Origin: Candidatus Aenigmatarchaeota archaeon
GTDB taxonomy: Archaea > Aenigmatarchaeota > Aenigmatarchaeia > PWEA01
DNA: 39,180 nucleotides
Direction: 5' to 3'
Assembly (NCBI GenBank): GCA_003555465.1
Contig: PWIB01000007.1
Span: 1 to 39,180 of the forward strand
Part shown: piece by piece, positions 1,753 through 30,404 of the stretch
Layout: every line of letters begins with the position of its first letter
Numbering within the stretch: position 1 is the first letter of the stretch
The notes under the pieces: generated by a model
Databases searched by the model: none
What the model saw: only the letters and a program-made list of their open reading frames with translations
What the model was told of the DNA's origin: nothing
Program-made: the position numbers and the translations under genes

Positions 1753-1783
1753 TCTATATTTTAAAAACAGTTCAGGTGATTTT

Positions 1784-3300: not shown

Positions 3301-3311
3301 TTGTGTTAACC

Positions 3312-5566: not shown

Positions 5567-5668
5567 AAGACCACTGTCATAGGTATAAAGATTGTGTTAT
5601 TTAAAACTTTTCCTTTTAAGTTCAATCACGACAACCAAAGTTTCAATAAAGATTAAATACCTTGAAAA

Positions 5669-5875
5669 TAAAGGTGTTTCTGTGGATGGGGGTCAAGGGT
5701 CCAGCCTGTCTTTTTAAGGCGTGGAGCGTGCGTCCCACAAGGTCCTTGAGGCCGGAGGGGCGTATGTGAGACGGACTGTAAAACACACGGGAGAACTCCG
5801 CGAGTCGCGCCGTCTGGGCAAGGCAATGGTGAGGAAGGTAGCCAGGACCTGAACAATGTCCCTCCACACCTTTTC
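5669..5875. ncRNA. GC-rich structured RNA candidate, class and strand unresolved
   Basis: A sharp GC-rich island sits in a 340-nt gap between AT-rich flanks. A terminal helix pairs UGUGGAUGGG (5681-5690) with CCCUCCACA (5857-5865). Internal helices are AGACGG (5769-5774) with CCGUCU (5810-5815) and a CGCG-AGU-CGCG hairpin (5799-5809). T-runs lie on both sides. The two track ORFs inside it translate to R/P/G/H-rich junk. Confidence 0.45.
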
Positions 5876-5909
5876 CCTCCGAAAAACTTTTAAGTCTTAG
5901 ATAAAGAGA

Positions 5910-6476
5910 GTGAAAGGCATGATTGAAGAAGATCTAGATACGCCGCTTGTAAGAGAAGTCATGTCAGAGGACCTGAACTACGCCAGCCGCGAAGATTCTG
6001 TCTGTGAGATAGCAAAAACCCTGAAGAAGGGCGACCGCGGCTCAGTCATAATAAAGGACGATGATGAGATAGAAGGTATAATCACTAATTCGGACATTGT
6101 CAACGAGTTCGTAGTTGACGGTAAAGGAAACAAGGCGAAGGAAATACTAACGGAAGATATGGTTACGATCTCCCCTGATATGGATATAGAGGATGCGGCA
6201 AGAGTTATGGTTAAGGAAGGTATAGAAAGGCTCGTGGTTATGGAGGGAGACAAGCTTGTAGGTATAATTTCTCAGCACGATATAATGCAGGTAAAGCCAG
6301 ATCTTTACCTTGATATAAGCCAGGGAATAAAGCTCGGTCCAGAAAGTGCAGAAATGACGCTGGAACAAAAGGAAGTAGGTCAGTGTGAGTCATGTGAGAA
6401 CTACTCCGAGGACCTGCAGGAGGTAAACGGAAACCTTCTCTGTCCAGAGTGTCAGGAAGATATGAACTTCGCTTAA
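5910..6476 (+). CDS. CBS-pair domain protein with C-terminal zinc ribbon
   Basis: Two CBS repeats are present (VMSEDLNY...GIITNSDIV and MVTISPDMDIEDAARVM...GIISQHDIM), followed by CESC...CPEC. The start may be the ATG at 5919 rather than the GTG at 5910. Confidence 0.8.
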   Translation: MKGMIEEDLDTPLVREVMSEDLNYASREDSVCEIAKTLKKGDRGSVIIKDDDEIEGIITNSDIVNEFVVDGKGNKAKEILTEDMVTISPDMDIEDAARVMVKEGIERLVVMEGDKLVGIISQHDIMQVKPDLYLDISQGIKLGPESAEMTLEQKEVGQCESCENYSEDLQEVNGNLLCPECQEDMNFA

Positions 6477-6853
6477 GAATTCAACTTCTTAGCTTCGCCG
6501 TGTATCAGAGCTAATCCTATGAAGGTAGACAGAACTCCTATGAAGAAGTTCAGTCCCAGCGGCATTAAAAGTATAAGAGGTATCCCCATAAGAAAAAACG
6601 CAAGTCCGAAGGCCAGTTTTCCCTTGTTGAAGCCTAGTTCCATCTCCATAATCTCCTCCTTGAACTCTTCAGTGTCTCTTTCCTCTAGGAACTCCTTGGC
6701 TTCGTCAAGCTTTTCTCCGTCTATGTCAAGGAAAAACCTTCCTGTGTAGCCACACTCAGTACAGCTGTATCCGCGTTCCATACCTATCAGTGCGAGGAAG
6801 TTAGCTCTGTCTGTCTTTATCTTCTCCGAACCACAGCTAGGGCAGATTTTCAT
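6473..6853 (-). CDS. zinc-ribbon membrane protein, unknown function
   Basis: N-terminal CPSCGS...CTECGY, an acidic linker, then two C-terminal TM helices. It converges on the CBS gene with a 4-nt overlap. Confidence 0.55.
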   Translation of the reverse strand: MKICPSCGSEKIKTDRANFLALIGMERGYSCTECGYTGRFFLDIDGEKLDEAKEFLEERDTEEFKEEIMEMELGFNKGKLAFGLAFFLMGIPLILLMPLGLNFFIGVLSTFIGLALIHGEAKKLNS

Positions 6854-6928
6854 AAGTTCTCCTTGTTTTCGAAGAGTTTAAGCTTTACCCTCATAAATTT
6901 TAAGTAGACTCCAAAAAGAAATGGTATT

Positions 6929-7588
6929 ATGCTAAAGGAAAGGATAGACGACTTTTACAGAAAGGAGGATAAGGACAGGGAGAGGGACTACTTCTACGCT
7001 TCCGAGGTAACGGACTGTAAGAGGAAGATATACTTCAAGGTCAAGGGTGCGGATAAAGAAAAACTGGATCCGCAGACAAACAGGAAGTTCGAGAGGGGTG
7101 ACCTCATACACCAGAGGCTGGTTTCCGCTCTTTACTCCGTTGGTGTCGTCACGGCTTCAGAGGTGGAGATGCCGAACCAGTCGCTGTTCCACGGAAGAGC
7201 CGATGCAATAGTCTCTATAAATGATGAAAACTACGTAGTTGAGATAAAGTCCGCGAGTCCGTACAGCTTCAAGACTCTTGATGGACCTAAGGAGTCATGG
7301 AGGAAACAGCTCCAACTCTATCTACACCACTTCGACATAGATCAAGGAATAATTCTCGTCGAATGTAAGGGTACTCAGAAGCTGAAGGAGTTCAGAGTCG
7401 AAAGGGACGACGAGGTCGTCGAGGAGCTGGAGGAGGAGTTCGAGAAGCTTCTGGAGATGATACAGAAGGATGTAGTGCCTAAAAAGCCCGACAAAGACGA
7501 CTGGAAGTTCGATAAATGCAAGTACTGCCTGTACGAAGAAGCATGCGAGGAAGCAAAAAACACTTTGAAAGGCTTCACGGGTGCCTAG
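6929..7588 (+). CDS. PD-(D/E)XK nuclease, Cas4/RecB-like with 4-Cys cluster
   Basis: An N-terminal Cys (TDCKRK), nuclease motifs GRADAIV and VEIKS, and C-terminal CKYCLYEEAC (C-x2-C-x5-C). This is the Cas4/AddB-type Fe-S nuclease pattern. Confidence 0.8.
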   Translation: MLKERIDDFYRKEDKDRERDYFYASEVTDCKRKIYFKVKGADKEKLDPQTNRKFERGDLIHQRLVSALYSVGVVTASEVEMPNQSLFHGRADAIVSINDENYVVEIKSASPYSFKTLDGPKESWRKQLQLYLHHFDIDQGIILVECKGTQKLKEFRVERDDEVVEELEEEFEKLLEMIQKDVVPKKPDKDDWKFDKCKYCLYEEACEEAKNTLKGFTGA

Positions 7589-7988
7589 AATTTCTAAGAG
7601 AGTCCTGGCCAGTGGAAAGTTCGACCTCCTGCATCCTGGACACATTTTCTATCTCGAGGAGTCGAAAAAGCTGGCGGAAGGAGGAGAACTCCTGGTAGTC
7701 ATAGCTCACGAAAACAATATCCAGGGCAATCTTTTCAGAAACGAAGAGAGGAAAAAGATGTTAGAAAGCCTTGAAGCTGTCGACAGGGTCTTTGTAGGCG
7801 AGGAAGACGTGGACTTCCTGAAAACTTTGAGGGAAGTTAAGCCGGAGGTAATAGCTCTGGGACACGACCAAAGACCCGAAGGACTGGAAAAAGCTCTGGA
7901 AAAATACGAGGGTAAGGTCGAGATCAAAAGGATAGAACCACACAGACCTGAAAAGTACTCATCAACAAGGTTAAAGGAAATGTTATAA
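7581..7988 (+). CDS. ribL: cytidylyltransferase-fold nucleotidyltransferase, probable archaeal FAD synthase
   Basis: SGKFDLLHPGHIFYL (H-x-G-H) and ALGHDQ resemble RibL. It has a GTG start that overlaps the upstream nuclease gene by 8 nt. Confidence 0.65.
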   Translation: MPRISKRVLASGKFDLLHPGHIFYLEESKKLAEGGELLVVIAHENNIQGNLFRNEERKKMLESLEAVDRVFVGEEDVDFLKTLREVKPEVIALGHDQRPEGLEKALEKYEGKVEIKRIEPHRPEKYSSTRLKEML

Positions 7989-7992
7989 GGTA

Positions 7993-8811
7993 CTAGTTCT
8001 CCAATCCTCTGAGAAAGCTGTGGATATTCTCACCGAGTTTCTGAGAATTATAACCTCCTTCCAGGACACAGAATACAGGTATTTCCAGTTCAGCCAACCT
8101 TTGCCCTATACTCCTGTAAGATTGAGTCGTTAGTTGTATTTTCGAGGCTAAAGGGTCTTCTTTGTATGTATCGAAGCCCGCAGAGACCGCCAAAATATCA
8201 AACTCTCTGTCCAGGCTCAACATCCTGTCCAGAACCTCGAGGTACTCTTCGTCCTTCACAGTACTCGTAAACAGGTGGTTGTGGCAGTTTTGCTCAGATT
8301 TTCTTCCCGTTCCCGGGAAACCTGAACCATGGAGCGAAACGTATTCGACGTTCTCCTCCCCGAGGAAGATATCCTGTGTGCCGTTCCCATGATGACGATC
8401 GATATCGACTATCAGTACTCTTTTGTCTAGCTTCTCCACAGCCACAGCTATGTTATTGAAGTAGCAGAACCCACCCAATCTTTCCCTGGTGGCGTGGTGC
8501 CCAGGAGGTCTCATCAATGAAAAGCCGTTTACCTCGGCGGCCTTTATCGCCCCGCCTACGGACAAACGCGCGTATTCGTATATGTCCTCGTAAGCAGGAC
8601 AGTCCATGCTGCGGAAGTTGCCTTCCCCGACCTTTCTTACCAGCTCCTGACTATGAACCTCCAGAATGTCCTCTTTTCTACATTTCTCAGGCTCCATGAA
8701 CTCGTAACCCTTCTCCTTCAAAAAATCAGCAGCCTTGGCGACTCTTTCAGGAGACTCGGGGTGACCTGCCCTAGAGAACCGAAGACATTTTTCAGAGTAT
8801 ACTATCTTCAT
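7993..8811 (-). CDS. histone deacetylase / acetoin utilisation family deacetylase
   Basis: MRPPGHHA, CYFNNIAVA, DIDRHHGNGTQDIF, SAGFDTY and LEGGYN are the catalytic motifs of the HDAC superfamily. Confidence 0.85.
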   Translation of the reverse strand: MKIVYSEKCLRFSRAGHPESPERVAKAADFLKEKGYEFMEPEKCRKEDILEVHSQELVRKVGEGNFRSMDCPAYEDIYEYARLSVGGAIKAAEVNGFSLMRPPGHHATRERLGGFCYFNNIAVAVEKLDKRVLIVDIDRHHGNGTQDIFLGEENVEYVSLHGSGFPGTGRKSEQNCHNHLFTSTVKDEEYLEVLDRMLSLDREFDILAVSAGFDTYKEDPLASKIQLTTQSYRSIGQRLAELEIPVFCVLEGGYNSQKLGENIHSFLRGLEN

Positions 8812-8926
8812 AAAGAAAAGATTTTTCTGAGGGTTTATAGACTTTTACAACTTACAGATACTGTCGAATTAAGCTTGTAGTAACTTTTTTGATTTCTTAA
8901 TCCGTGAAATCATTCAACAACAAAAC

Positions 8927-9115
8927 TCAGCAGCTCCTTTCTATAGGCTTGTCCAACCCCAGAGCTTCGATCAACTCGTCTTCTTTCTTTTGAGGATTGT
9001 AATCAATTGCCCTCACAAAACTACTGTTCTCTCTCTTCATATGCTCCTTGTATTTCTCAGCCCAAACTTCTTCAGAATCGTTCGCTCCAGGATGTTTTTC
9101 AATATACCCTACCAT
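8927..9115 (-). CDS. small hypothetical protein
   Basis: A 62-aa ORF with normal charged composition, standing alone between intergenic spacers. I recognise no motif. Confidence 0.3.
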   Translation of the reverse strand: MVGYIEKHPGANDSEEVWAEKYKEHMKRENSSFVRAIDYNPQKKEDELIEALGLDKPIERSC

Positions 9116-9184
9116 GATATCAAGACAAACCTAACACCCAAAAAATTTAAAGCTACCGGAGTTCACCTACCGAAAAGGGCTATC

Positions 9185-10753
9185 TCATATATCCTTAATC
9201 ATATAAGAACCCAGGAGACTGTATCCTAGATTCCTGTAGTACTCCCTGGCGCCGATGCCTGATATAACAGCCATGCTTTCCATGTCTTCTTCCTCGCAGA
9301 GCTCCTCGGCTCTGTCGAGAAGTTTGCTACCGTAGCCACTGTGCTGCACGCCTCCTCCCTCACTACCCAACGGAACCTCTTGTCCGTAAACGTGCAGCTC
9401 CCTGACAAGACCTGTCTTTCCGTCCAGTTCTTCGATGAAAGGATCGTCAGGAATCCTCAGTCTTAACAAAGCAGCTATAACGTCCTCGTCTCTGTCCTCG
9501 AAGGAGAGGAAGTATTCTTTTCCGTCGGAAGCCTCGTAGCTTCTCTCCGCGAGTTCAAAATTCAAGTTTTCCGCATCAATGTCGCTTCTACCTACCTCTC
9601 TGCACCTTATACATCTACATTCCTCGCCGCGTTCTTCCATTTCCCTTGAGACTATCTGGCGGAGGTTGGACTTTTCACAGCCCGCCACTATCGCTTCAGC
9701 AGGAACATCCCTGTTTAGCCTCATAACACGAACCCACGGCGGAATCCTCTTTCTCACTTCAACCATAAGATCTATTAACTCACCCTCGCTGTAAGGCTCG
9801 TATTCGCCTTCTCTGTACATCTCTTCAAGCTCCGAGTTTTTTACAACCAAAGTAGGATATATCTTCAAGGAGTCGGGCATAAACCGCTCGTCGGAGAACA
9901 GCTCCTCGAAATATTCGAGATCCTTATTCCTGGATGAACCAGGAAGGCCTGGCATGTAGTGGTATGTTACCTTGAGTCCGGAGTCCTTCAACAGCTTCGT
10001 TGCCTCTGCAACGTCCTCCACGGTGTGGCCTCTTTCTACTCTGCTGTACATGTCATCGTCGGGGACCTGCACACCCAGCTCCACGCGTGTAGTGCCTAAA
10101 TCCAACATATTACGAATCTCCTTCCCCTTACAGTAGTCCGGTCTTGTTTCCACAGTAAGACCAACACACCTGTGCTCCGCTTCCTCGTTTCTCTTCTTAG
10201 CCTCTTCCAGGCTTTTGCTTCTTTCACCATTCAGAGCTTCGAAGCAGCCCCTGACGAAATCCTTCTGGTAGGACAGGTCACGTGCAGGGAAGGTGCCTCC
10301 CATGACAATAAGCTCCACCTTGTTTGCATGGTGTCCTGTAAGATTCAACTGTTCGAGACGTCTCTGCGTTTGTCTGTACGGATCGAAGCCGTTCTGCTGT
10401 GCCCTCATCACCGCAGGCTCGTTGTCCACGTAGGACTGCGGAGCTTCAGGATCTCTGGGGCAGTAGACGCAGGTTCCGTGGGGGCATTCCGCCGGTGAAG
10501 ACATGACCGCAACTATAGAAACGCCGGACTTGCTTCTCGACGGCCTTCTTCTCAGTTTTTCCAAGACCTCCTCCCTTTCTTCACAGGAAGCGAGCTCCAG
10601 TACTTCCTCGTTCGAAGGAATCTTGCAGCCGTGTTCCGAAGCTATCTTCGTCTTCAGATCATGGACTTCCTCCCTCGGAATTTCTTCCTCCAGCAACCGC
10701 TCCAACACTTCTTCGGCAACTTCCCTCCTCTCCTCAGACCTTATCATCGACAT
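9185..10753 (-). CDS. elp3: Elp3-type radical SAM / GNAT tRNA carboxymethyluridine synthase
   Basis: 522 aa. The radical SAM cluster site CPHGTCVYCP is followed by a C-terminal GNAT region (HSGYGSKLL). Confidence 0.9.
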   Translation of the reverse strand: MSMIRSEERREVAEEVLERLLEEEIPREEVHDLKTKIASEHGCKIPSNEEVLELASCEEREEVLEKLRRRPSRSKSGVSIVAVMSSPAECPHGTCVYCPRDPEAPQSYVDNEPAVMRAQQNGFDPYRQTQRRLEQLNLTGHHANKVELIVMGGTFPARDLSYQKDFVRGCFEALNGERSKSLEEAKKRNEEAEHRCVGLTVETRPDYCKGKEIRNMLDLGTTRVELGVQVPDDDMYSRVERGHTVEDVAEATKLLKDSGLKVTYHYMPGLPGSSRNKDLEYFEELFSDERFMPDSLKIYPTLVVKNSELEEMYREGEYEPYSEGELIDLMVEVRKRIPPWVRVMRLNRDVPAEAIVAGCEKSNLRQIVSREMEERGEECRCIRCREVGRSDIDAENLNFELAERSYEASDGKEYFLSFEDRDEDVIAALLRLRIPDDPFIEELDGKTGLVRELHVYGQEVPLGSEGGGVQHSGYGSKLLDRAEELCEEEDMESMAVISGIGAREYYRNLGYSLLGSYMIKDI

Positions 10754-11503: not shown

Positions 11504-12709
11504 ATGCCCTGGGTAGACAAGTACGAACCTGAGAGCCTTGAAGACTTTTCCGGCCAGAAGAAGCAGATAAACAAGCTGAAGGACTGGTACGGGAACTGGG
11601 GCCCAGGTGACGATGCGCTTCTAATGCACGGACCTCCGGGCAGCGGGAAGACAACTTCCGTATATGCTCTTGCCAATGACAGAAATCTGGAGATATTCGA
11701 GGTAAACGCTTCCGACAACAGGAACAAGAAGGACATAGAGAATCTGGCCGGCTCCGCGTCCCAACAGATGAGCCTCATGGGAAGGGAAAAGATTATACTT
11801 ATAGACGAGGTAGACGGACTCTCAGGAAACAAGGACCGCGGCGGAGTTTCAGCTATAATAGAAGTTATAAAGGAGTCGAAGTTTCCTGTAGTCCTTACAG
11901 CAAACGACGCCTACGAAAGCAAGCTACGGAGTCTGAGAAGATACTGCGAACTCGTGGACTTCGGTAAGGTACACCTCTCCTCCATGACAGCCAATCTTGC
12001 AAGGATATGTGAGGAAGAAGGTGTGGAAGCCGAAAGGAAGATTCTGAAGAGGATTGCTAGAAAGAGCTCCGGCGACATGCGTTCCGCTATAAACGACCTG
12101 GAAGCTGTTGCTAGAGGCCAAGAAAAGATAACGAAGGAGGACCTCGAGGCCTTAGGCTTCAGGGACAGGGAAAAAGAGATCTTCGAGGTATTGAAGGTCG
12201 TCTTCAAGACTATGACCGCAAAGACAGCCAAGGATATGGCAGACGACTCCGAAAAGGATCCAGACGAGCTGTTCTGGTGGATAGAACAAAACGTGCCGAA
12301 TGAGTACAAAAAAGAAATGGACGTAGCAGATGCATTTGAAAAGCTTTCAAAGGCTGACCTGTTCAAGACACGCATAAGAAGGAGGCAGAACTGGTCGCTT
12401 ATGAAGTACTACATAGCTCTTATGTCGGCGGGTGTCGCACTGGCAAAGAAGGAGAAGTACGGTGGTTTCACAAGATATCAGCCGCCTCAGAGGCTAAAAA
12501 GGTACGGTAAAAGCAAAGGTAAGAGGAAAGCTATGGAAGATATACATGGGAAGTTGGTAAATGAGCTGCACGTTTCCTCATCGAAAATGAAAATGGAGTA
12601 CATACCCCTAATGAAATGGATCATGAAAAAACAGGAAGGATCAGTCGAGGGACTGATGAAATCTTATGGACTTTCTGAAGAGGACTTAGAACAGATAAGG
12701 GATTTCTGA
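11504..12709 (+). CDS. rfcL: replication factor C large subunit
   Basis: PWVDKYEP (RFC box), Walker A GPPGSGKT, IILIDEVDG, and a basic C-terminal region. Confidence 0.85.
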   Translation: MPWVDKYEPESLEDFSGQKKQINKLKDWYGNWGPGDDALLMHGPPGSGKTTSVYALANDRNLEIFEVNASDNRNKKDIENLAGSASQQMSLMGREKIILIDEVDGLSGNKDRGGVSAIIEVIKESKFPVVLTANDAYESKLRSLRRYCELVDFGKVHLSSMTANLARICEEEGVEAERKILKRIARKSSGDMRSAINDLEAVARGQEKITKEDLEALGFRDREKEIFEVLKVVFKTMTAKTAKDMADDSEKDPDELFWWIEQNVPNEYKKEMDVADAFEKLSKADLFKTRIRRRQNWSLMKYYIALMSAGVALAKKEKYGGFTRYQPPQRLKRYGKSKGKRKAMEDIHGKLVNELHVSSSKMKMEYIPLMKWIMKKQEGSVEGLMKSYGLSEEDLEQIRDF

Positions 12710-12753
12710 AACCCATACTTTCTTCCTCACAATTAAGGAGGTGGTTGCGGCGG

Positions 12754-14232
12754 TTAAGGTGGTTCATAATCAATTCCACACGTACCACCAGTACAAACCA
12801 AACCTGAACAACAATCTGCATCGCTTTCACAATCTTCACCAAAGCCCTGACAGTCTTCCTCCTCAAAGGTCGCGGTTATTGAGTAGTCGTCTTCCATAGT
12901 TATATAGGTGCCAGCCGAGTCTGGATCTTCTATGTTTTCTGTGTCTCCTGCCCAACCATCGAAAGTATGGTCCAAGCTAGGAAAAGCGCCTAATTCTACT
13001 TCCTCGCCTTCCGCCCGGTTGGAAAATTCACCTTCACCGGGCTCATAAACAGAACCACCATCTTCCGAATCTATAAACAAGGTGTAAGTCTCTTCTACAA
13101 ATACAGGAGTTATATCATAGTTTCCATTCATTTCCACTTCCGTATTCATTTCTTCTGTATCCTCAACCTCCTCGACATCGCCCTGCCACTCAAAGAACTC
13201 CCATCCATCCTCAGGGTCAGCAGACAGTTCAACCGAAGTCCCCTGCTCATAATCTTCCTCGAATCCAGCCTCTACACTTCCACCATCAACTTCCACAGAA
13301 CCCCCACCTTCTATTTCAGGAATTGAAAGTGTAGCATACTCCTCAAACATGGCTTCAACATCCTTATCATCGTCCATGACAACAGTTATCTCCTCGTTTC
13401 CTTCTTCGCCGTCTGGAACATCACCTGACCATTCATCGAAATACGACCCCTCTTCGGATTCAGCACTCAGGTAAACTTCTTCGTCAGGAGGATAGGAATT
13501 TAATCCGGACATGTCTTCACCGTCTTGTCCTTCGACATTACCCCCCCCTTCCACATCAACATACAGCTCGTACATCTCTTCTAGATGAACCTTAGCAGTC
13601 TTGTCACTATCCATACCTATAACTATATCCTTTTCCTCATATTCCACTCCATCAACGCTCCAAAAATCAAAGCTGTAACCCTCGTCAGCTTCAAAGAAAA
13701 GGCTTACCTCCTCGCCTACGCCGAATACCTCTGTATAACCTGAGTCCACAGGCGCTCCATTGACAAAGATCTGCCCTTCATCGACGCCTTTCATCACCTG
13801 GAGTTCGTACTCCTCGGGACCGACCTGAAATGAGTCGTTCAGAAAAAAGCCAGGTGATGTCAAAAAAATCGACGCTGTAGTCCTGTGCTCAGCGTCGCAG
13901 TATTCATGATAGGTTATGTCTAGATGTGCTGTCCTGAATCTCATTCCTCTCTCGGCAACCTCCTTGAGCTCCTTCAGATCACGTTTCCTCGGGTAACCAT
14001 CCTCGCCACATTCGCTATCTGCCACTGTTCTGTCTATACTTTGTCTTATGCTGGTTGAGACTCCATCCTCCTGGTACATATGAAAATCCGTAAGCCTTAT
14101 CTCATCGTAAACCTCCAAAATACTAACAATTCCCATAACAGAAATCGCGACAATAACTATAGATATAACGAAAAACTGTCCTCTTTCACCTATATAATTA
14201 TATTTTGGCCATCTGGGCATGTTCAACCCCAT
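12754..14232 (-). CDS. surface protein: prepilin-like N-terminus, 4 InlB B-repeat-like domains, C-terminal 6-Cys module
   Basis: ERG/QFFVISIVIVAISVMGIV (class III signal-like). Four repeats of about 75 aa carry G(Y/S/W).F..W.GD ... A.F. The C-terminus is CQGFGEDCESDADCCSGLVCTGGTC. The start (14232 or 14220) overlaps the end of the DUF424 gene. Confidence 0.7.
   Translation of the reverse strand: MGLNMPRWPKYNYIGERGQFFVISIVIVAISVMGIVSILEVYDEIRLTDFHMYQEDGVSTSIRQSIDRTVADSECGEDGYPRKRDLKELKEVAERGMRFRTAHLDITYHEYCDAEHRTTASIFLTSPGFFLNDSFQVGPEEYELQVMKGVDEGQIFVNGAPVDSGYTEVFGVGEEVSLFFEADEGYSFDFWSVDGVEYEEKDIVIGMDSDKTAKVHLEEMYELYVDVEGGGNVEGQDGEDMSGLNSYPPDEEVYLSAESEEGSYFDEWSGDVPDGEEGNEEITVVMDDDKDVEAMFEEYATLSIPEIEGGGSVEVDGGSVEAGFEEDYEQGTSVELSADPEDGWEFFEWQGDVEEVEDTEEMNTEVEMNGNYDITPVFVEETYTLFIDSEDGGSVYEPGEGEFSNRAEGEEVELGAFPSLDHTFDGWAGDTENIEDPDSAGTYITMEDDYSITATFEEEDCQGFGEDCESDADCCSGLVCTGGTCGIDYEPP
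12859..13809 (-). repeat. four tandem protein-domain repeats (aa 142-458) inside the surface protein gene
   Basis: Repeat anchors are EGYSFDFWSVDG, EGSYFDEWSGDV, DGWEFFEWQGDV and DHTFDGWAGDT. Each is preceded by a Y.L.V..GG.V block and followed by (V/A/T).(F/L)EE. Confidence 0.75.
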
Positions 14233-14491
14233 CTATCTTTAGAACCTTGTCCTTTTCAAAGAATCCGTTTTCGACTAAAAGAGAAACGGCCTCGGGTCCA
14301 ACTGCGTTTATTATACTACTCTTCTCCGCCTTCTCGACAAGCTCCTCCGCGTCTATTCTTTTCTGGCCGTAAAAGCCCTCTTTGACCTCAAAGCTCCTCT
14401 TTTCATCCTCTAGAACTTCACCGAGAAGCTCCTCGTCACATACAGCAAGGACTTTCTGCCCTTCCCTTTCAGTGTAGTTGTGGTAGAACAT
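14198..14491 (-). CDS. DUF424 family protein
   Basis: VLAVCDEELLGEVLE...FYGQKRIDAEEL...INAVGPEAV...IDGVEHAQ matches the archaeal DUF424 pattern. It directly abuts aIF2-beta. Confidence 0.75.
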   Translation of the reverse strand: MFYHNYTEREGQKVLAVCDEELLGEVLEDEKRSFEVKEGFYGQKRIDAEELVEKAEKSSIINAVGPEAVSLLVENGFFEKDKVLKIDGVEHAQMAKI

Positions 14492-14893
14492 CTAAAACTG
14501 CCTTACAGCCTGTTTAGCACCACAGGCCTCGCATTTTATCTTCTTGATCCTTTCCTCCTCCACCAGCTCTGTATCTACCTTTTCACAGGCAGGACAGATT
14601 ACAAAATCATCAACGTACTGACTAACCTTGTCGGAGACCTTCCTTTCGGTTATCCTTCCCTGGAACACGGCTCTTGAGCCTTCTACGCTTCCGGGAACAC
14701 CTAGCTCTCTCCTGAGAAAGTTCATCATATGCTCCTCCGGCCTCCTCAGCTTGTCAGCTATCTTGGAAAAGTTCTTGATTATTGTCTTCTCTCCTTCCTG
14801 CATAGTTTCCGGTTCAGGAACTTCAAACCTTTCTTCGTCCACAGTCTCGGAAATCTTCTCCTCCGCTCTGTCGTAGAGTTCATCGTAATCCAT
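14492..14893 (-). CDS. eif2b: translation initiation factor aIF2 beta subunit
   Basis: DYDELYDRA, the KTIIKNF...ADKLRRPEEHMMNFLRRELG block, and the C-terminal zinc ribbon CPACEKVDT...CEACGA. Confidence 0.9.
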   Translation of the reverse strand: MDYDELYDRAEEKISETVDEERFEVPEPETMQEGEKTIIKNFSKIADKLRRPEEHMMNFLRRELGVPGSVEGSRAVFQGRITERKVSDKVSQYVDDFVICPACEKVDTELVEEERIKKIKCEACGAKQAVRQF

Positions 14894-14944
14894 AAAACCA
14901 CCTTATTGTCTAATTGACTAACAGACTTAATAACCTTAGATATT

Positions 14945-15709
14945 TTAAAGCTTCTTGATCTTGCCGGGTCTCGGCTCAAAGCACGTACCTTCAGTGAGAA
15001 GATCGTTTACCACGTTGTCTATATCGCTTTCTTCTGCGTCCACTTCGTCTATTATATCCTCGTAAGAAGCCCCTTCGCCTTCATCTATATCTTCTATGGC
15101 TTCGAGAACTTCGTTTCTGAGCTCACTCTTGTCCTCTTCCTCTTCGCCCTCACCGAAGCTGTCCTCTTCTTCGAGGCTCTCTGCCTTGATTATAGCTTCG
15201 GCCCTTTCAATGCCAACCTCCTCGGCAAAGACCTCCTCGCCGTTGTCAGGATGCTCATCCCTGAGCTCCTCCAACCTTTCCTTGTCCTCCTCCAAAGACT
15301 TGAGCTCTTCAACAACCTCAACAAGGTTCAAAGTCATGAGGTTAGGATCCTCTACCTCCTTCAGTATCTCAGAATTTATGTATATTTCTCCTTCATACTC
15401 CTGGACCTTTCCGACGCATAAGACGAGGTCGCCTTCCTCCACCTTCTCGTAGTCACCGAGGTCCTGGAAGAACTTTGCCCTTATGGTCTCCGTCTCGTCG
15501 TCAAGAACTATGAAAGCGTAGCTCTCGTCGTCGTTTACAAACTTAGTGGTGACAGTAGCTACAAGCTTGACCCTGCTTACCCTCTGGCCGCAGGGAGTTA
15601 TGAGGTAGTTACTTTTGAATCCTTCCTGTCTGAAATACCTGCCGCTGACCAAGTCCTCTACTAAAGCTCTCTTTGCTGTAAGCCTCTCCTGTTTTCCGTC
15701 CATATGCAT
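14945..15709 (-). CDS. OB-fold ssDNA-binding-like protein with acidic linker and C-terminal winged helix (RPA32/Rpa2-like)
   Basis: The N-terminal OB region is VSRVKLVATVT...AFIVLDDETETIRAKFF...GDLVLCVGKVQEYEGEIYIN. A long E/D linker follows, then the C-terminus LLTEGTCFEPRPGKIKKL. The ATG at 15709 overlaps the DUF3467 stop (TGATG). Confidence 0.65.
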   Translation of the reverse strand: MHMDGKQERLTAKRALVEDLVSGRYFRQEGFKSNYLITPCGQRVSRVKLVATVTTKFVNDDESYAFIVLDDETETIRAKFFQDLGDYEKVEEGDLVLCVGKVQEYEGEIYINSEILKEVEDPNLMTLNLVEVVEELKSLEEDKERLEELRDEHPDNGEEVFAEEVGIERAEAIIKAESLEEEDSFGEGEEEEDKSELRNEVLEAIEDIDEGEGASYEDIIDEVDAEESDIDNVVNDLLTEGTCFEPRPGKIKKL

Positions 15710-16038
15710 CAACCTATGTATGTTGGCTCGTCAGCATCGTCCGCTTCGATCTCTTCCTTGTCCTTCTTCTCCCTTTCCTTAACTTCTATCTCTCCGAACT
15801 TGTCCTCGTACTTCTCCACGTTCTTCTGCAAGACCTTCAGTATCTTCTTGGCGAGGACAGGATCCATGACAATGGGCTTGTGCCAGACTACAGACTCGAC
15901 GTTCCTTCCTTGCTTTGTTTTACTTACCTTCGGTGTGGACTGCTTGAAGTCGAAGACGAACTTGTGGGGATTGAACAGAACGGAAAACGAGTCGCTGAAA
16001 AAGGCTTCGTCCTCTTTCTCTTTACCTTTGTTTTTCAT
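15709..16038 (-). CDS. DUF3467 family protein
   Basis: 109 aa. FNPHKFVFDF...PIVMDPVLAKKILKVLQKNVEKYEDKFGEI follows the DUF3467 consensus (..EF.lDF ... P.hAKrLl.aLq.Ni.kYE..fG.I). Confidence 0.7.
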   Translation of the reverse strand: MKNKGKEKEDEAFFSDSFSVLFNPHKFVFDFKQSTPKVSKTKQGRNVESVVWHKPIVMDPVLAKKILKVLQKNVEKYEDKFGEIEVKEREKKDKEEIEADDADEPTYIG

Positions 16039-16041
16039 TAT

Positions 16042-19000
16042 TCACACCTTCTGAACATGTCCGGGTCTCGGTTCGAATATCATACCTTTGTTTTTCATCT
16101 CTTTTATTAGCTTGTCCGGCTTACTTAAACCTTCCTCCTCCAGAGCCGAAAGCAGATCTTCCTCGGGGATGTTCTTACCAAGGTCCTCCTCCAGGTTGTC
16201 CAGAACCTCCATAACCTTGCTCATCTTCGACCGCTCCGAGGCAGGGGTTCCCCCTTCAGCCCTGTCTATATCTATCTCGTGCGTCTCAGGATCCATTCCA
16301 AGCTGCTTTATAGAGTGCTTCATAAGCTTTATCGCACGCTGTGCATCCTCCTTCTTGACCTCTTCGTCCAGCCTCACCTTTGCCGAAGCCTCGGCCAGTC
16401 TCTGCAAGGCCTCGTACTGCCTCAAGGTTATAGGAACAGTGTCGCTCTCTGCGTCGACGTACTTGTTCCTCATATCCACGTAGAAGTTCTTCAGGGTCGC
16501 TGCGGCCTTCTTAGTCATCTGTGGCCTGCAGTTCCTCCTCGCGTAGGAGATGTATTTCTTCAGAAAGTCTATATCTATAAGAGGTTCAGCCTGGCTCTCG
16601 TCGCCAACTCTAGAGTCTATTATATGGTCTACGATCTTTTCGTCCCTGTCTCTGTCAGGCACGTCACGCAGTGCGAACTTCAGATCGAAACGTGAAAGTA
16701 AAGTATCGGGAATATCTATCTGCTCGGCTATAGGCCTGTATGGATCGAAACGGGAGAACTTGGGATTAGCACCACCGATTATAGAAGTTTCGGCAGGAAG
16801 CGTCGCCTGTATGGTCGCCTTGCTTATCGAAACTGTGTTATGTAAGACCATACCATTGGAGATAAAGGTTCTGCCCGGAACTGTAACATCGTAGACCATG
16901 TCCACGTCACTGGGAACCTTCTCGACAGCTTCGACTTGAACCCAACCCACTTCACTATCCACTATGTGGCCAAGGAACTCTATTTTTGTCTTCACCTGAA
17001 GCCTTTCCTTGAGAATTTGTTCCAGAACCTCCCTGTATTCCTCAAGCTCGGTGGAGTTATCCTCACGGTAGTAAACTGTTGAGTTTGAAACGCCAAGTTC
17101 TTCAGCTATAACGTCAACCCCAACTCCGAACTCACGTCTAACTTTTCTCAGTTCTTCACCCTTTAGTGGAAGAGAATTGACAGTGTTCAAGAGTTCTATG
17201 TACCTTTCCTCTAACTTTGACAATACTCTCTTTAGTGTAGGACGGGTAAAATTGAGGTTATTGTTTTCGTACTCTTCAAGGGACCATCCAACTGCCTCCT
17301 CCCTCGACATATTCAAATCCTCAAGAACCGACGTAAAAAGACCGCCGACTTCAGGAACAGTCTCAAAAAGGTTCTTCCGCAAAGACTTATCACCATCAAG
17401 ATAATCCCGAAGTCTTTGGTTCTCTTCTTCCTTGAGGAATCCTATCTCCTTCGCAAACTTACTGATGGAGTTTTGGCCGGTAACAGCCACTCTATATATC
17501 TTTTTCCCGGATTCTGCTTCCGAGGTTCTTATCTTACTAGGTATCGAAAACCGTAGAAGGAGGTCTGATATCTGCCTCGAAAGTTCCTCGGAAGAAGTGG
17601 TATAAACTACCTCCAGTCCACGGTCCTTGCTGACAATACCACCGTCCCCGGCAAAAGCCCGTCTGAGAAGATGTCTGATGTCCTTCTTACTGCATTTCAT
17701 TATCTTCTCCGGGATCCTCTTTTCATCATGCTTTACTAGAAGATCCTCACCTAGGCTATTAACAAAGTCTCGGAGTCTAGAGGATACGTACCTAAGCGTA
17801 GTCCTTTTCGAACCACGGTCGTTCCTCTCTCTCTCATAGGCTTCCAGACCGAAAAGATTCTCCATCAAAGATCTGAAATCCTCCAGTAGGTAAGGATCGG
17901 AGTTTGTAAAGTTAAGTCCGTTCTTGTTGCCGCGGTTCAACTCATAACCACAGTCAGATACTATATAGCCGATAAGGGAGCAGAGCTCGGGTGAGTTGTG
18001 TTCAGGAACTTTTATCTCCTTCGAGTTTGGATGGAAATCATCTACCTCTTCAAGTTCCTGTTCCTCTCCCTCTATCGGAAGGTTAAGTGGAACGGGAACC
18101 CAACTACCTTCCTCGACTTCATCGGCCCTGGAAGTAGTTATTTCACCATCCTTTATGGCCCAGACAGGATGTTCAGGGGTAACCTTGACTTCTCTTCCTG
18201 AAGAAGTCTTTATAACGTAAAAGTTATCAGGAGCCCCGTGTCTGCTGAGACGGGACGGCTTTCTAGGGTAAATAGATGAGAAATCTGTAGAAAGAAGATT
18301 TAAATCATCTTCCTCTGAAATCTCCAACATCTCACAGTCCTCACCTTCAACCACCTCCTCTTCATTGTCTTCCATGAAACTGTCAACAAGGTCGCCGATT
18401 TTTTCTGAGGAGCCATCAGGAAACAAAAGCTCGAAGTCGGGGTGGTAGCTCTGCGTCGACATGGCCTCATGCAGGTTAACCTGATCCTCCTTGGACATCT
18501 TGTCGAACTCGTCTATACAGAGGACGCCTTTGTTGGCGAGGACAAGAGCCCCAGCTTCTAGAACCCAGCCACCCATAAGCTCCTCATCCCTGACTACGGT
18601 CGCGGTATTATGAACTACCAAACCATTGGCCATAAATGAATGGCCGTCCTCTACTGTCAGATCGTAGACCCAGTCATCACCATCTTCAACAACATTGATC
18701 TCCTTAATACCATCGAAGTAAAGATCTGAATTTGCAATACGAGAAAGTTTTTCCACAGCCTCGTTGCTTCCATGTGATTTGAGTTCTTCAACAATCTCCT
18801 CCAACTTTCTCCTGGAAATATCCCTTCTATCCCTCTCATAGGAATAATTCTTGTAACCGTAAACCTCTTTTGCTGAAAGACCCAGGCCTTCCCGAGCTTC
18901 CTTGAGAAGGTCTCCTATGCCAGGTACCAAATCTACGTTTGTATGATACTCATCTATAGAATCAATTATTCTTTGAAGTTTTTCATCCTTCGAGGAAAGA

Positions 19001-21321
19001 TTGAACCCTATCTTTTCATTAAATCTCTCCAAATTTTCCTTCCCTTTTATCTCTAATGTATATTTTGGTGCAGACCTTATCTCTTCTCCTCTTATCTCAG
19101 AAACAGTCGGGTCCCTTTTTCTAATCTTTGATCTGATTCCAAAACGAAGCAAGAGAAGCCTTATCTGCCTAAGGTATTCTTTTGAGGATTGGGTCAAGTC
19201 TATATAACTAGCCCCATTATCTCTCTCTATTGCAGAGCCATCAGCATCAAAAAGCCCACTAATAAAGGGTGATATAAGTTTGTTTGGCAATTTTGAAAGG
19301 GCTCCAGAAACTTCAATCCTTTCCTTTTTCTCGCCTATAGGAATTCCCAAGCTCTGGCTTAGAGATCCAAATATTTTTGAGGCAAACCTTAATTGTGGAG
19401 TTTTTTCATCTTCCCTGTAAATACTTGATTCGATATTGAAGCTCCGAAGAGTTGACTCGGCCTGCTGTAAAACCTCGGACTCTGAATTAGTTAACCTTAA
19501 ACCAATACCACCGTAAGAAGTGCTATAAACATCACCATCTCCAGCAAGTAGGCCCTGCAAGTACATCATTTCCCCATCAATTTCCTTATGAAGTTCTATC
19601 TCATGTCCATTCCTTTGAGAAAGTTCAAGTATAGAAGGGAGATTTTCTTGTAAGCTGTTTCCGGTATACTCTGCAATCCTATCCAAATCTTTCAGCCTCG
19701 GAGCTCCTCTCAAATCGTCGTCCCTCCAATCATGATAAAGTCCGTCTTCAGAAATCCCTGTTTTCTGAGAAAAATTCCTTATGCCGCCATTGTTTCTGAG
19801 ATCTTCTGCAAAAGTTTGAACCGTCTCAGAGGAGTTCTGGAGCCTAGCTGTTTGGTCAATAATACGTGGGAGAAAGCTGCTATTTTCCTCGGGCTTGGTA
19901 TTTATTCTTCTCGGCACAGCCAAAAGCTCCTCCTTATCAACATCTTTAGCTTTCTTCCATTTTATCTCACCAGAATCAAATACTGGGAGAGGGTTATCAG
20001 GAGTCACAGTCACCTCTCTACCGGAGTAAGTCTCTACTTCGTAAAGCTTCTTCGGTGCTCTTATCTTCCAGAACTGAGAAACCTCCATTGGCCTTATCTT
20101 CATTGAATCTTTGTCGAAAGCCAGTATCTCCATAGAACTTGGATTAGAGGACTTGAATATCCCTTCTTCGTGCTTTTTTCTTCCGTTTTCATCAAACTCC
20201 TCTTCCACAACGTCTCTTATTTCTCTCATCTCACCATCATTCAGCGTAACAAGTGTATCTCCTGTCACACAGAGCCCAGCTGCCGTAGTTCCCTTTCCGG
20301 AAGCGTACTTACCTCGTGGAAGCATCTCCGCAGCAAGCTTAAGCATCTGCGTCTTACCAGCACTTGGATCCCCGACAAACAGAATATGTATGTCTCCACG
20401 TATCTTGGTTCCGTCCTCCAGTCTATGCGGCACACCACCGAAAAGCTGGAGTATTATAGACTCCTTCTCCTCCTCCAATCCGTACATGGAAGGAGCAAGT
20501 GACTTTACGAGCTTTTCATATATATTGTCGCTGTTTGCAAGCTCCCGTATCTTCTCTTCCTCTTCCTCCGTGACTTCCATCTCCTCGAAGGTAACCTCCT
20601 TGGGGTTTACCCAGTTAGCTTCAAGAAAGATATCAAGCTTCTTCGTCTTCTTGCCTTGAATACGCTTAGGCATCTCCCTTACTCTTCCCGTAAGCTCGAG
20701 TCGAGTTCCGGGATCTGTCCTCCTCTGCATCTTAGGTGTTGTAAGACCGTCCTTGAGGTAAACGGAGACCTCCCCAGGCTTTTCACCTGAGACCTTCTCA
20801 AACAGATCCTCCATATGTATCCACCTCGCGTCGCTCAGCTCCCTGTCCACCTGGTTGAATCCACGCTTACGGCCGCAGTCACAGCGAGAAGGATAACTCA
20901 TCCTCTTCTTCATCTGCGGAACCTCCATGGTTTCGCCACAGTCAGGACACTCAAAGATAGCGACCTCCAGCTCCGGCTTGACCTCCGAGGCTCTTTTAAC
21001 TGTACCCTCTACCTTCACGAACTTCCCCAGGTGCTTGCTCCTCAGGTCCTTTATCCTCGTCTTTTCATCATCAGGTATATTCTCCACACGAACATTGAGA
21101 CTGACCTCCTTGTCCGTGCCGAGGTCTATCTCATCGATAGCGTCCTCGGCAGCGTCGAAGAAGTCCTTCGGGTTCTCAAGCAGCTCTTCCGTCAGCTCGT
21201 GACCTGCATACTTGTCCAGTTCCTTGAAGTCTATAAGAACGAAGTCCTCGTCCTCTCTAACCGCCTCCAGAAGGTCCTCTTCGTAGAACTTTCTGAAAAA
21301 CTCCTCAAGCTCTTCGATCAT
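16042..21321 (-). CDS. mcm: MCM replicative helicase interrupted by two inteins (spliced length about 666 aa)
   Basis: Zinc motif CPDCG...CDCG, Walker A GDPSAGKTQ, Walker B CIDEFDKM, arginine finger SRFDL, and a C-terminal winged helix. The start is the ATG at 21321 (MIEELEEFF). The first 58 codons of the track ORF are an upstream artefact. Confidence 0.95.
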   Translation of the reverse strand: MIEELEEFFRKFYEEDLLEAVREDEDFVLIDFKELDKYAGHELTEELLENPKDFFDAAEDAIDEIDLGTDKEVSLNVRVENIPDDEKTRIKDLRSKHLGKFVKVEGTVKRASEVKPELEVAIFECPDCGETMEVPQMKKRMSYPSRCDCGRKRGFNQVDRELSDARWIHMEDLFEKVSGEKPGEVSVYLKDGLTTPKMQRRTDPGTRLELTGRVREMPKRIQGKKTKKLDIFLEANWVNPKEVTFEEMEVTEEEEEKIRELANSDNIYEKLVKSLAPSMYGLEEEKESIILQLFGGVPHRLEDGTKIRGDIHILFVGDPSAGKTQMLKLAAEMLPRGKYASGKGTTAAGLCVTGDTLVTLNDGEMREIRDVVEEEFDENGRKKHEEGIFKSSNPSSMEILAFDKDSMKIRPMEVSQFWKIRAPKKLYEVETYSGREVTVTPDNPLPVFDSGEIKWKKAKDVDKEELLAVPRRINTKPEENSSFLPRIIDQTARLQNSSETVQTFAEDLRNNGGIRNFSQKTGISEDGLYHDWRDDDLRGAPRLKDLDRIAEYTGNSLQENLPSILELSQRNGHEIELHKEIDGEMMYLQGLLAGDGDVYSTSYGGIGLRLTNSESEVLQQAESTLRSFNIESSIYREDEKTPQLRFASKIFGSLSQSLGIPIGEKKERIEVSGALSKLPNKLISPFISGLFDADGSAIERDNGASYIDLTQSSKEYLRQIRLLLLRFGIRSKIRKRDPTVSEIRGEEIRSAPKYTLEIKGKENLERFNEKIGFNLSSKDEKLQRIIDSIDEYHTNVDLVPGIGDLLKEAREGLGLSAKEVYGYKNYSYERDRRDISRRKLEEIVEELKSHGSNEAVEKLSRIANSDLYFDGIKEINVVEDGDDWVYDLTVEDGHSFMANGLVVHNTATVVRDEELMGGWVLEAGALVLANKGVLCIDEFDKMSKEDQVNLHEAMSTQSYHPDFELLFPDGSSEKIGDLVDSFMEDNEEEVVEGEDCEMLEISEEDDLNLLSTDFSSIYPRKPSRLSRHGAPDNFYVIKTSSGREVKVTPEHPVWAIKDGEITTSRADEVEEGSWVPVPLNLPIEGEEQELEEVDDFHPNSKEIKVPEHNSPELCSLIGYIVSDCGYELNRGNKNGLNFTNSDPYLLEDFRSLMENLFGLEAYERERNDRGSKRTTLRYVSSRLRDFVNSLGEDLLVKHDEKRIPEKIMKCSKKDIRHLLRRAFAGDGGIVSKDRGLEVVYTTSSEELSRQISDLLLRFSIPSKIRTSEAESGKKIYRVAVTGQNSISKFAKEIGFLKEEENQRLRDYLDGDKSLRKNLFETVPEVGGLFTSVLEDLNMSREEAVGWSLEEYENNNLNFTRPTLKRVLSKLEERYIELLNTVNSLPLKGEELRKVRREFGVGVDVIAEELGVSNSTVYYREDNSTELEEYREVLEQILKERLQVKTKIEFLGHIVDSEVGWVQVEAVEKVPSDVDMVYDVTVPGRTFISNGMVLHNTVSISKATIQATLPAETSIIGGANPKFSRFDPYRPIAEQIDIPDTLLSRFDLKFALRDVPDRDRDEKIVDHIIDSRVGDESQAEPLIDIDFLKKYISYARRNCRPQMTKKAAATLKNFYVDMRNKYVDAESDTVPITLRQYEALQRLAEASAKVRLDEEVKKEDAQRAIKLMKHSIKQLGMDPETHEIDIDRAEGGTPASERSKMSKVMEVLDNLEEDLGKNIPEEDLLSALEEEGLSKPDKLIKEMKNKGMIFEPRPGHVQKV
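16837..18450 (-). mobile_element. MCM intein 2 (538 aa), Ser1 intein with LAGLIDADG-type endonuclease region
   Basis: Junction HEAMSTQ / SYHPDFELLFPDG ... SNGMVLHN / TVSISKATI. Excision restores HEAM..QT.SI.KA. Block B is VTPEHP. Endonuclease-like motifs are LIGYIVSDCGY and LLRRAFAGDGGI. An HTH-like stretch reads IAEELGVSNSTVYY. Confidence 0.85.
18607..20271 (-). mobile_element. MCM intein 1 (555 aa) with LAGLIDADG homing endonuclease
   Basis: Extein junction GKGTTAAGL / CVTGDTLV ... NGLVVHN / TATVVRDE. After excision the conserved GKG..AAGLTA.VVRD is restored. Endonuclease motifs are LQGLLAGDGDV and FISGLFDADGSA. The DNA is more AT-rich than the exteins. Confidence 0.9.
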
Positions 21322-21376
21322 ACCCAACAAACCCCGTAGTAAATAATCCCCAACTCTACTTAAATTTAACCCAATC

Positions 21377-21387
21377 AAAAAAAAAAA
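21377..21387 (-). terminator. oligo-T tract (T11 on the minus strand)
   Basis: A run of 11 A on the plus strand lies downstream of the stop of the secreted-protein gene and upstream of the mcm start. Archaeal terminators are oligo-T. Confidence 0.4.
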
Positions 21388-21504
21388 GACTTTGATACCA
21401 ATAACTATTACTTCTTCAATTGAATATAATTCAAAGGTCTGTCTACGCCTCTCAACATAAGAAAAAACTAAATAGTGTAAACTTACCCAAAACACTTAAA
21501 CTAA

Positions 21505-28406: not shown

Positions 28407-28429
28407 ACAGGTCCCCTAAACCTGTTGTC

Positions 28430-28445
28430 TTGTTTGTTTGTTTGT
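28430..28445. repeat. (TTGT)4 microsatellite in the GH57 / GT divergent spacer
   Basis: ttgtttgtttgtttgt read directly from the sequence, 24 nt upstream of the GH57 start codon. Confidence 0.9.
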
Positions 28446-30374: not shown

Positions 30375-30404
30375 TTTAAAGTCGCTATCCCCAATATTCT
30401 CCTT

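Follow-up and report, generated by a model that had tools for sequence, protein, structure and literature searches.

The subject of this analysis is a gene, here called gene X, on a 39,180-nucleotide (nt) stretch of DNA from a Candidatus Aenigmatarchaeota archaeon (contig PWIB01000007.1, positions 1 to 39,180), which is referred to below as the window. Gene X is an open reading frame (ORF) of 492 amino acids (aa) at 12754..14232 on the minus strand, and its existence was confirmed in the ORF listing. We judge the chances to be about even that its product is a pilin-like modular adhesin that carries a class III signal and is encoded at a hypervariable locus. The protein consists of an N-terminal module (the N-module), four tandem Flg_new_2 repeats, and a tail containing six cysteines. 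An earlier reading of the window made from the letters alone (the sequence-only reading) had proposed an N terminus, four repeats, and a 6-Cys tail, and this three-part architecture proved right.

The N terminus of the gene X protein has the form expected of a class III signal, in that a short charged leader ending in [KR][GA] is followed by a hydrophobic helix (ERG|QFFVISIVIVAISVMGIVSIL). The leader (residues 1 to 18, ...NYIGERG; 14179..14232, minus strand) ends at a putative prepilin-peptidase site, R-G|Q, and its coding sequence overlaps the 3' end of the DUF424 gene. The helix (residues 19 to 39, QFFVISIVIVAISVMGIVSIL; 14116..14178, minus strand) is the best-conserved stretch of the family by column counts and is modeled as helical from residue 17 by AlphaFold2 (AF2). 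The remainder of the module forms a head (residues 40 to 141; 13810..14115, minus strand) of two helices on a three-stranded sheet, in which Cys75 and Cys112 are conserved and a PRKR[DN]L motif is invariant in an alignment of close orthologues. The junction that the sequence-only reading had described, ...GERG followed by the hydrophobic stretch, is present in that form.

Translation of gene X likely begins at its second ATG (M5, nt 14220), which gives a protein of 488 aa. This start is favored because the orthologues and the database protein P0001 begin with M[PL]RW at this position and because a GGGG lies 6 nt upstream. The start of gene X overlaps the 3' end of DUF424 by 35 nt when counted from M1 and by 23 nt when counted from M5. 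The protein is strongly acidic, with a pI of 4.05, 26% Asp plus Glu, and 4.3% Lys plus Arg. It contains eight cysteines, two in the N-terminal part (residues 75 and 112) and six within the last 32 residues (461, 468, 474, 475, 480, and 485). A scan for promoters and terminators of the bacterial type, which is not applicable to archaea, returned counts at chance.

A profile of residues 5 to 147 was run in an exhaustive search of 1.84 billion representative proteins and recovered 69 representatives at E<=1e-3. A second search added 39 members, none of which carries a Pfam domain. Most members of the family are stand-alone proteins of 115 to 140 aa that start with M(K)KGQFF[IV]I[SA]xVI. Few have source names; almost all of those that do are labeled "hypothetical protein," several come from Ca. 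Aenigmarchaeota/Aenigmatarchaeota metagenome-assembled genomes (MAGs), and one bears an evidently spurious enzyme label. Judged by these searches, residues 5 to 147 represent an unannotated family in its own right. The pilin-type anchor of the sequence-only reading stands in part: its class III-like junction gained support, but the anchor is a whole module of about 140 aa, mostly found without any extension, and not merely an N terminus.

Conservation at the junction and at the cysteine positions was counted in an alignment of 52 family members. The junction columns hold [KR] in 50 members, [GA] in 51, Q in 51, [FW] in all 52, and [FY] in 51, and the first 8 residues of the helix are the best-conserved part of the N-module. 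The leader before the junction varies from 3 to 36 aa; leaders of only three residues, M-K-G, are genuine, since no in-frame start lies upstream of them. Equivalents of Cys75 and Cys112 are kept in 43 and 45 of the members, respectively. EppA-dependent pilins of Methanococcus are cut at KG|Q, where Gln at +1 is required (PMC4371748), and EppA-type "system 1" filaments have been reported from methanogens and DPANN archaea (bioRxiv 2026.04.22.720090). Measured against EppA-type substrates, the X family has the Gln at +1, and its position +5 is Ile or Val, not Glu. The proposal of a class III signal gains support from these counts, since [KR][GA]Q is 96 to 98% conserved and matches the EppA site. 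When the N-module was modeled by AF2 with the 52-sequence alignment, the predicted local distance difference test (pLDDT) score was 87, with the core above 90, and in the model an N-terminal helix, about 55 residues long and kinked once, is joined by a second helix and a three-stranded sheet.

The middle of the protein is made up of four domains that belong to Pfam family PF18998 (Flg_new_2), which matched in four stretches at E=1e-30 (105.9 bits against a cut-off of 23.6). Their boundaries were taken from the Pfam matches, the repeat alignment, and the AF2 model: repeat 1 covers residues 142 to 220 (13573..13809; pLDDT 82 to 91), repeat 2 residues 221 to 299 (13336..13572), repeat 3 residues 300 to 380 (13093..13335; the top Pfam stretch, at 316 to 379), and repeat 4 residues 381 to 458 (12859..13092), all on the minus strand. 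AF2 models the four as all-beta domains with a pLDDT of about 80 to 92. The sequence-only reading had called these domains divergent InlB B-repeats and had proposed predicting their structure; the call was correct, and the prediction returned four confident beta-domains. The NCBIfam model of the classical Listeria/Bacteroides repeat, TIGR02543, stayed below its cut-off (12.5 bits against 20.95; E=0.14). The pairwise identity of the four repeats is 23 to 40%, and a tandem-repeat search of gene X found no repeat at the DNA level. The duplication is therefore old, and a recent expansion of the repeats was rejected.

Foldseek with the full-length model was uninformative and returned only generic surface proteins with tandem beta-domains (such as PitA and SdrD) at low TM-scores. 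A scan of genome contigs with the full gene X protein brought up nothing but two Flg_new_2 proteins, both unrelated, one in a Thermoplasmata MAG and the other in a Balneolaceae MAG. A separate match came from P0007, an acidic surface protein of 665 aa whose Flg_new_2 repeats are 39% identical to those of gene X and share the motif EWSGDVP.(D/E)EEG..IT..MDDDK(D/E)(I/V).A.FEE. P0007 ends in a PGF-CTERM-like sequence, GIPGFTSMILVLGIIIAVAIYQKKKH. Repeats of this subtype are thus also in circulation among surface proteins of halophiles that are anchored in another way.

The C-terminal tail (residues 459 to 492; 12757..12858, minus strand) has the cysteine spacing C-x6-C-x5-CC-x4-C-x4-C, which resembles that of knottins, or inhibitor cystine knot (ICK) proteins, and confirms the knot-like 6-Cys terminal module noted from the sequence. 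The consensus spacing of knottin cysteines is CX3-7CX3-6CX0-5CX1-4CX4-13C, and the spacing of the tail is compatible with it. Phmmer of the tail against PDB sequences gave 49 hits at E<10, every one of them a small disulfide-rich mini-protein; most are ICK/knottin toxins, squash trypsin inhibitors, and conotoxins, with Dickkopf in addition. The best of these is the spider toxin cyriotoxin-1a (E=0.003), an ICK mini-protein with which the tail shares its spacing and local GFG and CCSGLxC motifs. The gene X tail differs from such mini-proteins in that it is fused C-terminally to a 450-aa archaeal surface protein. Similar tails occur in the relatives P0003 (C-x6-C-x6-CC-x4-C-x6-C) and P0061. The Pfam ICK family Toxin_12 (PF07740) matched the tail at E=8e-4 and 20.4 bits, just below its 21-bit cut-off, and the AF2 pLDDT of the tail is below 50. 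The cystine-knot fold is accordingly put forward here as putative, from the pattern of the sequence.

A handful of full-length relatives of gene X were found among 5.8 billion proteins. They share residues 1 to 145 and then diverge in architecture. After the N-module, P0003 (437 aa) has a CARDB domain, two Flg_new_2 repeats, and a 6-Cys tail, and P0002 (304 aa) has Flg_new_2 repeats. Other members of the family carry a Laminin_G_3 domain (P0093), CBM96 with NosD/beta-helix (P0099), CARDB with Flg_new_2 and DUF2341 (P0058), weak F5/8-C or MAM-like regions (P0119 and P0123), long Cys-rich regions (P0090 and P0107), or a short knot-like tail (P0061). In the 1436-aa member at locus L037, the cargo is a chain of lectin-like domains. 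According to PMC4858521, DUF2341 occurs in pilus-tip adhesins of the PilY type and in clade-1 pilus loci of archaea. Because the cargo across the family consists of extracellular binding-type domains, and because of the cysteine pairs, a topology with the N terminus inside and the C terminus outside is supported.

Two details of these relatives are recorded as separate observations. The P0002 frame (L002, 2522..2545) contains an in-frame TAG (..FEELE*YELTIDV..), after which it continues with a third Flg_new_2 repeat and a Cys tail of different spacing; this could reflect a pseudogene, a sequencing error, or a strain variant. L037 (4487..5557 and 6001..10311), which comes from a non-halophile, encodes the 1436-aa N-module protein and a second protein that has a class III-like start, MKG|AVDLITIIIVACMVV, and a lectin-like C terminus. 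The gene for this second protein is inserted between RPA and aIF2-beta.

The strongest sign of variability at the locus came from contig L001 (ENA ERZ27266004). Over 2.5 kb upstream of gene X (window 16656..14153, covering the MCM 3' end, DUF3467, RPA, aIF2-beta, and DUF424), L001 and the window are 98.6 to 99% identical in DNA, and the proteins of this region are 98 to 100% identical. Identity collapses at about nt 14205, beyond which only a short QFFVIS block aligns. The segment without detectable DNA similarity, as defined by blastn and alignment, extends over 12601..14205, and its left edge is in the last codons and stop of DUF424. The rest of gene X cannot be aligned between the two by blastn; the N-modules are 35% identical, and the domain sets differ, with CARDB and two repeats in L001 against four repeats in the window. 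Similarity resumes in the RFC large subunit gene, at only 84.7% DNA identity. Two further pairs of loci from non-halophiles are about 92% identical upstream and 72 to 73% identical in X. Among more distant relatives (the near-identical L001 excluded), N-modules are 26 to 45% identical to that of the window at the protein level, compared with 42 to 85% for aIF2-beta. An exact look-up of P0001 gave no record, and one of the window's RPA protein found one short extra contig only and no further alleles. The divergence between these loci has the pattern of an allele that recombination exchanges and selection keeps diverse, which would be expected of a surface protein that recognizes a host or is exposed to viruses.

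Strain-variable pilin alleles at a fixed chromosomal locus are known from the pilA groups of Pseudomonas aeruginosa and from pilE of Neisseria. The likeness to gene X lies in conserved flanks and a conserved extreme N terminus, the remainder of the gene being unrelated from one close strain to another. The X locus differs in that no silent cassettes or accessory genes were seen, and the evidence for it comes from a single pair of sequences.

The family is strictly placed in the genome. A scan of metagenome loci with a 10-sequence subset of the N-module family returned 41 loci, and in 36 of them X starts 3 to 35 nt after aIF2-beta on the same strand. Where the contigs of these loci extend far enough, RPA and MCM lie upstream and the RFC large subunit gene lies downstream in convergent orientation. 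The remaining five comprise two short contigs with DUF424 directly upstream, one without upstream sequence, and two without aIF2-beta nearby. The conserved order is MCM-RPA-aIF2beta-X, facing RFC. In the window, DUF424 (14198..14491, minus strand; Pfam E=1.9e-23) lies directly upstream of gene X and is preceded by aIF2-beta (14492..14893, minus strand; Pfam E=5.7e-37), the conserved upstream neighbor of the family. The conserved downstream neighbor, the RFC large subunit gene identified by Pfam and synteny (11504..12709, plus strand), converges on gene X across a 44-nt gap. The halophile-type loci L001, L002, L007/8, L050/51, and L052 have the order aIF2beta-DUF424-X with the same overlap. This agrees with the overlap and co-orientation that the sequence-only reading had reported for gene X, DUF424, and aIF2-beta. 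That reading was right about the neighborhood as well but had called it an odd operon partner for an adhesin, which it is not: the loci point to the position after aIF2-beta as ancestral and deeply conserved in the X family.

Locus L050, from assembly GCA_046539305.1 (labeled Ca. Aenigmatarchaeota), repeats the order of the window over 12 genes (GH57, GT, GDE, MinD, TBP, MCM, DUF3467, RPA, aIF2beta, DUF424, X, and RFC), and its X is the 135-aa module only. Because X is a bare module there in the same synteny, the 350-aa extension in the window is an addition, specific to its lineage, to a gene that is itself lineage-wide. Its acidic proteome and the relatives place the window in a halophilic DPANN cluster-2 lineage, which may be the Nanohaloarchaeota or the halophilic Aenigmatarchaeota of PMC13195033; the nearest named relatives are labeled Ca. 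Aenigmatarchaeota. An ectosymbiotic lifestyle of the source archaeon is plausible.

Several results weigh against the reading of gene X as a pilin-like adhesin. No Pfam or NCBIfam model for pilins or class III signals matched any of the 52 aligned members significantly; the best matches below significance were UpsA (E=0.033, two members) and "prepilin peptidase-dependent pilin" (E=0.074, one member). Foldseek of the N-module against the PDB returned no pilin, pseudopilin, or archaellin, its top match being to unrelated alpha+beta domains at E=0.03, and the family profile found nothing among PDB sequences. After the Gln, the family has an aromatic F or W at +2 and F or Y at +3 and lacks the Glu at +5, unlike characterized EppA substrates. 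Among the substantial ORFs of the window, a Pfam scan detected neither a pilus ATPase nor a platform protein nor a prepilin peptidase, in line with the earlier remark that no assembly machinery is visible there, and no assembly genes lie within 10 kb of X in L050. The cargo of relatives reaches about 1300 aa, which is hard to place in a filament except at its tip, and the strongest case for hypervariability comes from one 5-kb metagenome contig, L001. Because the module matched neither a pilin or class III profile nor a solved pilin structure, membership in the pilins stays an inference. With regard to the missing machinery, stand-alone pilin genes are known, and class III-signal proteins whose genes lie outside filament loci include the major pilin of Methanococcus and the binding proteins of Sulfolobus. 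In halophilic DPANN MAGs, Tad-like pilus clusters with prepilin peptidases have been found, yet no pilins were annotated (PMC9563170).

These same results bear on the main rival explanation, in which the gene X protein is an ordinary type II membrane protein, held by an uncleaved signal anchor, that has the same topology, display, and binding but involves no peptidase or filament. The lack of matching pilin profiles and structures and of nearby assembly genes fits such an anchor, as do the many members with a three-residue M-K-G leader, in which one Lys satisfies the positive-inside rule, and the very large cargos of relatives, which are easier to reconcile with a membrane anchor than with a subunit of a filament. 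However, a plain anchor leaves unexplained why Gly/Ala and Gln are near-invariant at the border of the helix and why the first 8 residues of the helix are the best conserved, and the K-G-Q junction is exactly a site of the EppA type. We regard this explanation as possible but somewhat unlikely. Three other arrangements were considered and rejected. A Sec signal peptide cleaved after the helix would not fit a helix that is the most conserved element and continues into the folded head; the gene X protein lacks the C terminus of a PGF-CTERM/archaeosortase-anchored protein; and the size and domains of the protein do not fit a SPEARE-type giant protein.

Two further explanations place the function elsewhere. 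If the tail were a protease inhibitor, channel blocker, or toxin directed against hosts or competitors, either held on the stalk or released, gene X would encode an effector-delivery device. The nearest sequence matches of the tail are indeed ion-channel toxins and squash trypsin inhibitors, and Cys-rich tails recur on P0061, P0090, and P0107. However, those matches are marginal and driven largely by the cysteine pattern, the pLDDT of the tail is below 50, no processing site lies between stalk and tail, and in orthologues the place of the tail is taken by lectin-like domains or by other domains for binding, a pattern that favors binding as the role they share; we hold this explanation to be quite improbable. 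The conserved order MCM-RPA-aIF2beta-X-RFC, kept in dozens of loci across deep divergence, could instead suggest a housekeeping role in translation or replication together with aIF2-beta, DUF424, MCM, RPA, or RFC, with the extension being incidental. The sequence-only reading had named a lineage-wide housekeeping protein of known function as an outcome that would overturn it, and one half of this was found: the base module is lineage-wide, but no known function came with it. An N-terminal membrane helix, a conserved cysteine pair of extracytoplasmic type, cargo that is exclusively of extracellular type, and the far faster evolution of X than of its neighbors (the 26 to 45% against 42 to 85% for aIF2-beta given above) make a housekeeping role extremely unlikely.

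For a pilin-like modular adhesin, the following course of events is proposed. Gene X would be cotranscribed, and is probably translationally coupled, with aIF2-beta and DUF424, as suggested by the conserved 23- to 35-nt overlap and the synteny. The protein would be inserted, presumably in a Sec-dependent manner, with its N terminus inside and its C terminus outside. The leader would be removed after Gly18 by an EppA/PibD-type (A24) peptidase encoded elsewhere, leaving an N-terminal Gln, as the [KR][GA]|Q junction suggests. The conserved helix may then hold the protein in the membrane, or it may allow the protein to join a type IV filament as a subunit that is of low abundance or sits at the tip, and the alpha/beta head is probably closed by a Cys75-Cys112 disulfide. 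The four Flg_new_2 domains, the identity of which is established, would serve as a rigid and highly acidic stalk, and the 34-residue cystine-knot-like tip could be the end that binds a component of the host envelope. Because the base module is lineage-wide, the cargo varies among relatives, and near-identical genomes differ by replacement of the whole locus, the cargo most likely determines the specificity of contact with a host cell or a surface and would be under diversifying selection.

Known systems resemble gene X in parts. The modular type IV pilins PilB and PilC of Streptococcus sanguinis consist of a class III pilin module with a grafted C-terminal adhesive or lectin module (PMC8179133, PMC9934059), and the one conserved N-module of the X family with its interchangeable cargo is similar to them. 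The features that define a modular pilin, a module shared with short stand-alone members and an independent C-terminal fold, are found in the X family, on condition that the module is a pilin. Gene X differs in being archaeal, in having an N-module without sequence or Foldseek similarity to solved pilins, in lying outside a pilus locus, and in carrying a tandem B-repeat stalk with a knot-like tip as its cargo; its processing and assembly enter this comparison as predictions from sequence. The Epd pilins of Methanococcus maripaludis, which belong to system 1, share the K-G|Q junction with its obligatory Gln at +1, and several of their genes, including that of the major pilin, lie outside the pilus locus, as gene X does. 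System 1 is also present in DPANN archaea. The Epd pilins carry Glu at +5, whereas the X family has F/W-F/Y-I-I-S after the Gln, and the folds of the heads differ; no Pfam family, those for class III signals and pilins included, matched any X member at E<=1.

The "bindosome" proteins of the Sulfolobales are large extracellular proteins with a pilin-type N terminus; their genes lie apart from filament loci, and a shared machinery is believed to carry them. Gene X differs from them in having no solute-binding domain, no adjacent ABC transporter, and cargo of the adhesion or carbohydrate-binding type. Surface proteins with Flg_new_2/InlB B-repeats (PF18998 and PF09479) are represented in gene X by four bona fide PF18998 domains. 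Such proteins have Sec signal peptides and C-terminal or cell-wall anchors, whereas the repeats of gene X come after a pilin-like module and fall short of TIGR02543.

A broader proposal can be made, although we consider it rather doubtful as a whole. The aIF2-beta-linked N-module might be an unannotated type IV filament subunit of DPANN cluster-2 (Aenigmatarchaeota and their halophilic relatives) that serves as a universal platform for host-recognition modules, which would be specific to lineages and strains and be exchanged by recombination after grafting. The locus would then set partner specificity, and the tip would be the first archaeal knottin seen.

A second ORF of the window also has a pilin-like start. 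At 5270..5566 on the minus strand, a 98-aa ORF, too short for the 110-aa ORF list, begins with MALKKG|ISMPVNMLVILAIAVLVLLALTAFF, which resembles a class III signal of the PibD type (cf. UpsB, KGIS), and continues with an acidic region containing seven cysteines; it has no Pfam family. The ORF is conserved, being 64% identical to P0168 and 57% identical to P0169, and LKKGLSMPVNMLVILA is kept in P0168. From its sequence, it is a candidate for a small pilin of the same organism. Between this ORF and the gene for a CBS-domain protein, a region of about 340 nt (5570..5910) contains no convincing ORF, tRNA, or Rfam match, its sole Rfam hit being rteR at chance level (E=0.35). Rfam and tRNA scans of the window were likewise empty.

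Other genes of the window were recorded as well. The MCM gene (16042..21495, minus strand) encodes 1817 aa owing to two inteins with LAGLIDADG endonuclease domains; the MCMs of L050 and L052 are intein free and have 665 to 666 aa. Between MCM and TBP, a gene at 21505..22137 (minus strand) encodes an acidic secreted protein of 210 aa that carries a signal peptide of the Sec type and closes with a poly-Asp stretch and a Cys-rich tail. Two of its motifs, SQGHPV.EI.LS and WPED..DAATK.YVDYVC, recur in a 253-aa protein that L052 encodes at this position, and the gene has no counterpart in L050, where TBP and MCM adjoin. This may be a second islet of variable surface proteins. The regions 898..4787 and 23636..31970 hold an AMP-salvage set (an IF-2B-family isomerase, a form III-type RuBisCO, and an AMP phosphorylase-like gene) and a glycogen-type cluster (GDE, GT1/GT4 synthases, GH57, and a phosphorylase), which are typical of fermentative DPANN archaea. 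Two overlapping GT4-family ORFs lie at 28598..29266 and 29226..30374 on the plus strand. Only the N-terminal Glyco_transf_4 domain is present in the first (222 aa), the second being of full length, and the pair may represent a gene fragment or a partial duplication.

The ingredients of gene X have precedents in class III-signal proteins with functional cargo, in B-repeat stalks, and in hypervariable pilin loci. Four things are new. The N-module family is unannotated and structurally distinct, it is strictly linked to aIF2-beta throughout a DPANN clade, it serves as a base on which interchangeable cargo is mounted, and the tip in this archaeon is knottin-like. Knottins have been reported to be absent from archaea (PMC5753296); if the tail is a true knottin, the fold would extend to the Archaea. 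How DPANN archaea recognize and attach to their hosts is an open question, and genome surveys find pilus machineries without pilins (PMC9563170). The X locus offers a concrete and easily located candidate for DPANN host contact beside aIF2-beta. The swap between near-identical genomes suggests that the locus is under diversifying selection, the signature expected of a determinant of host specificity or of a virus receptor.

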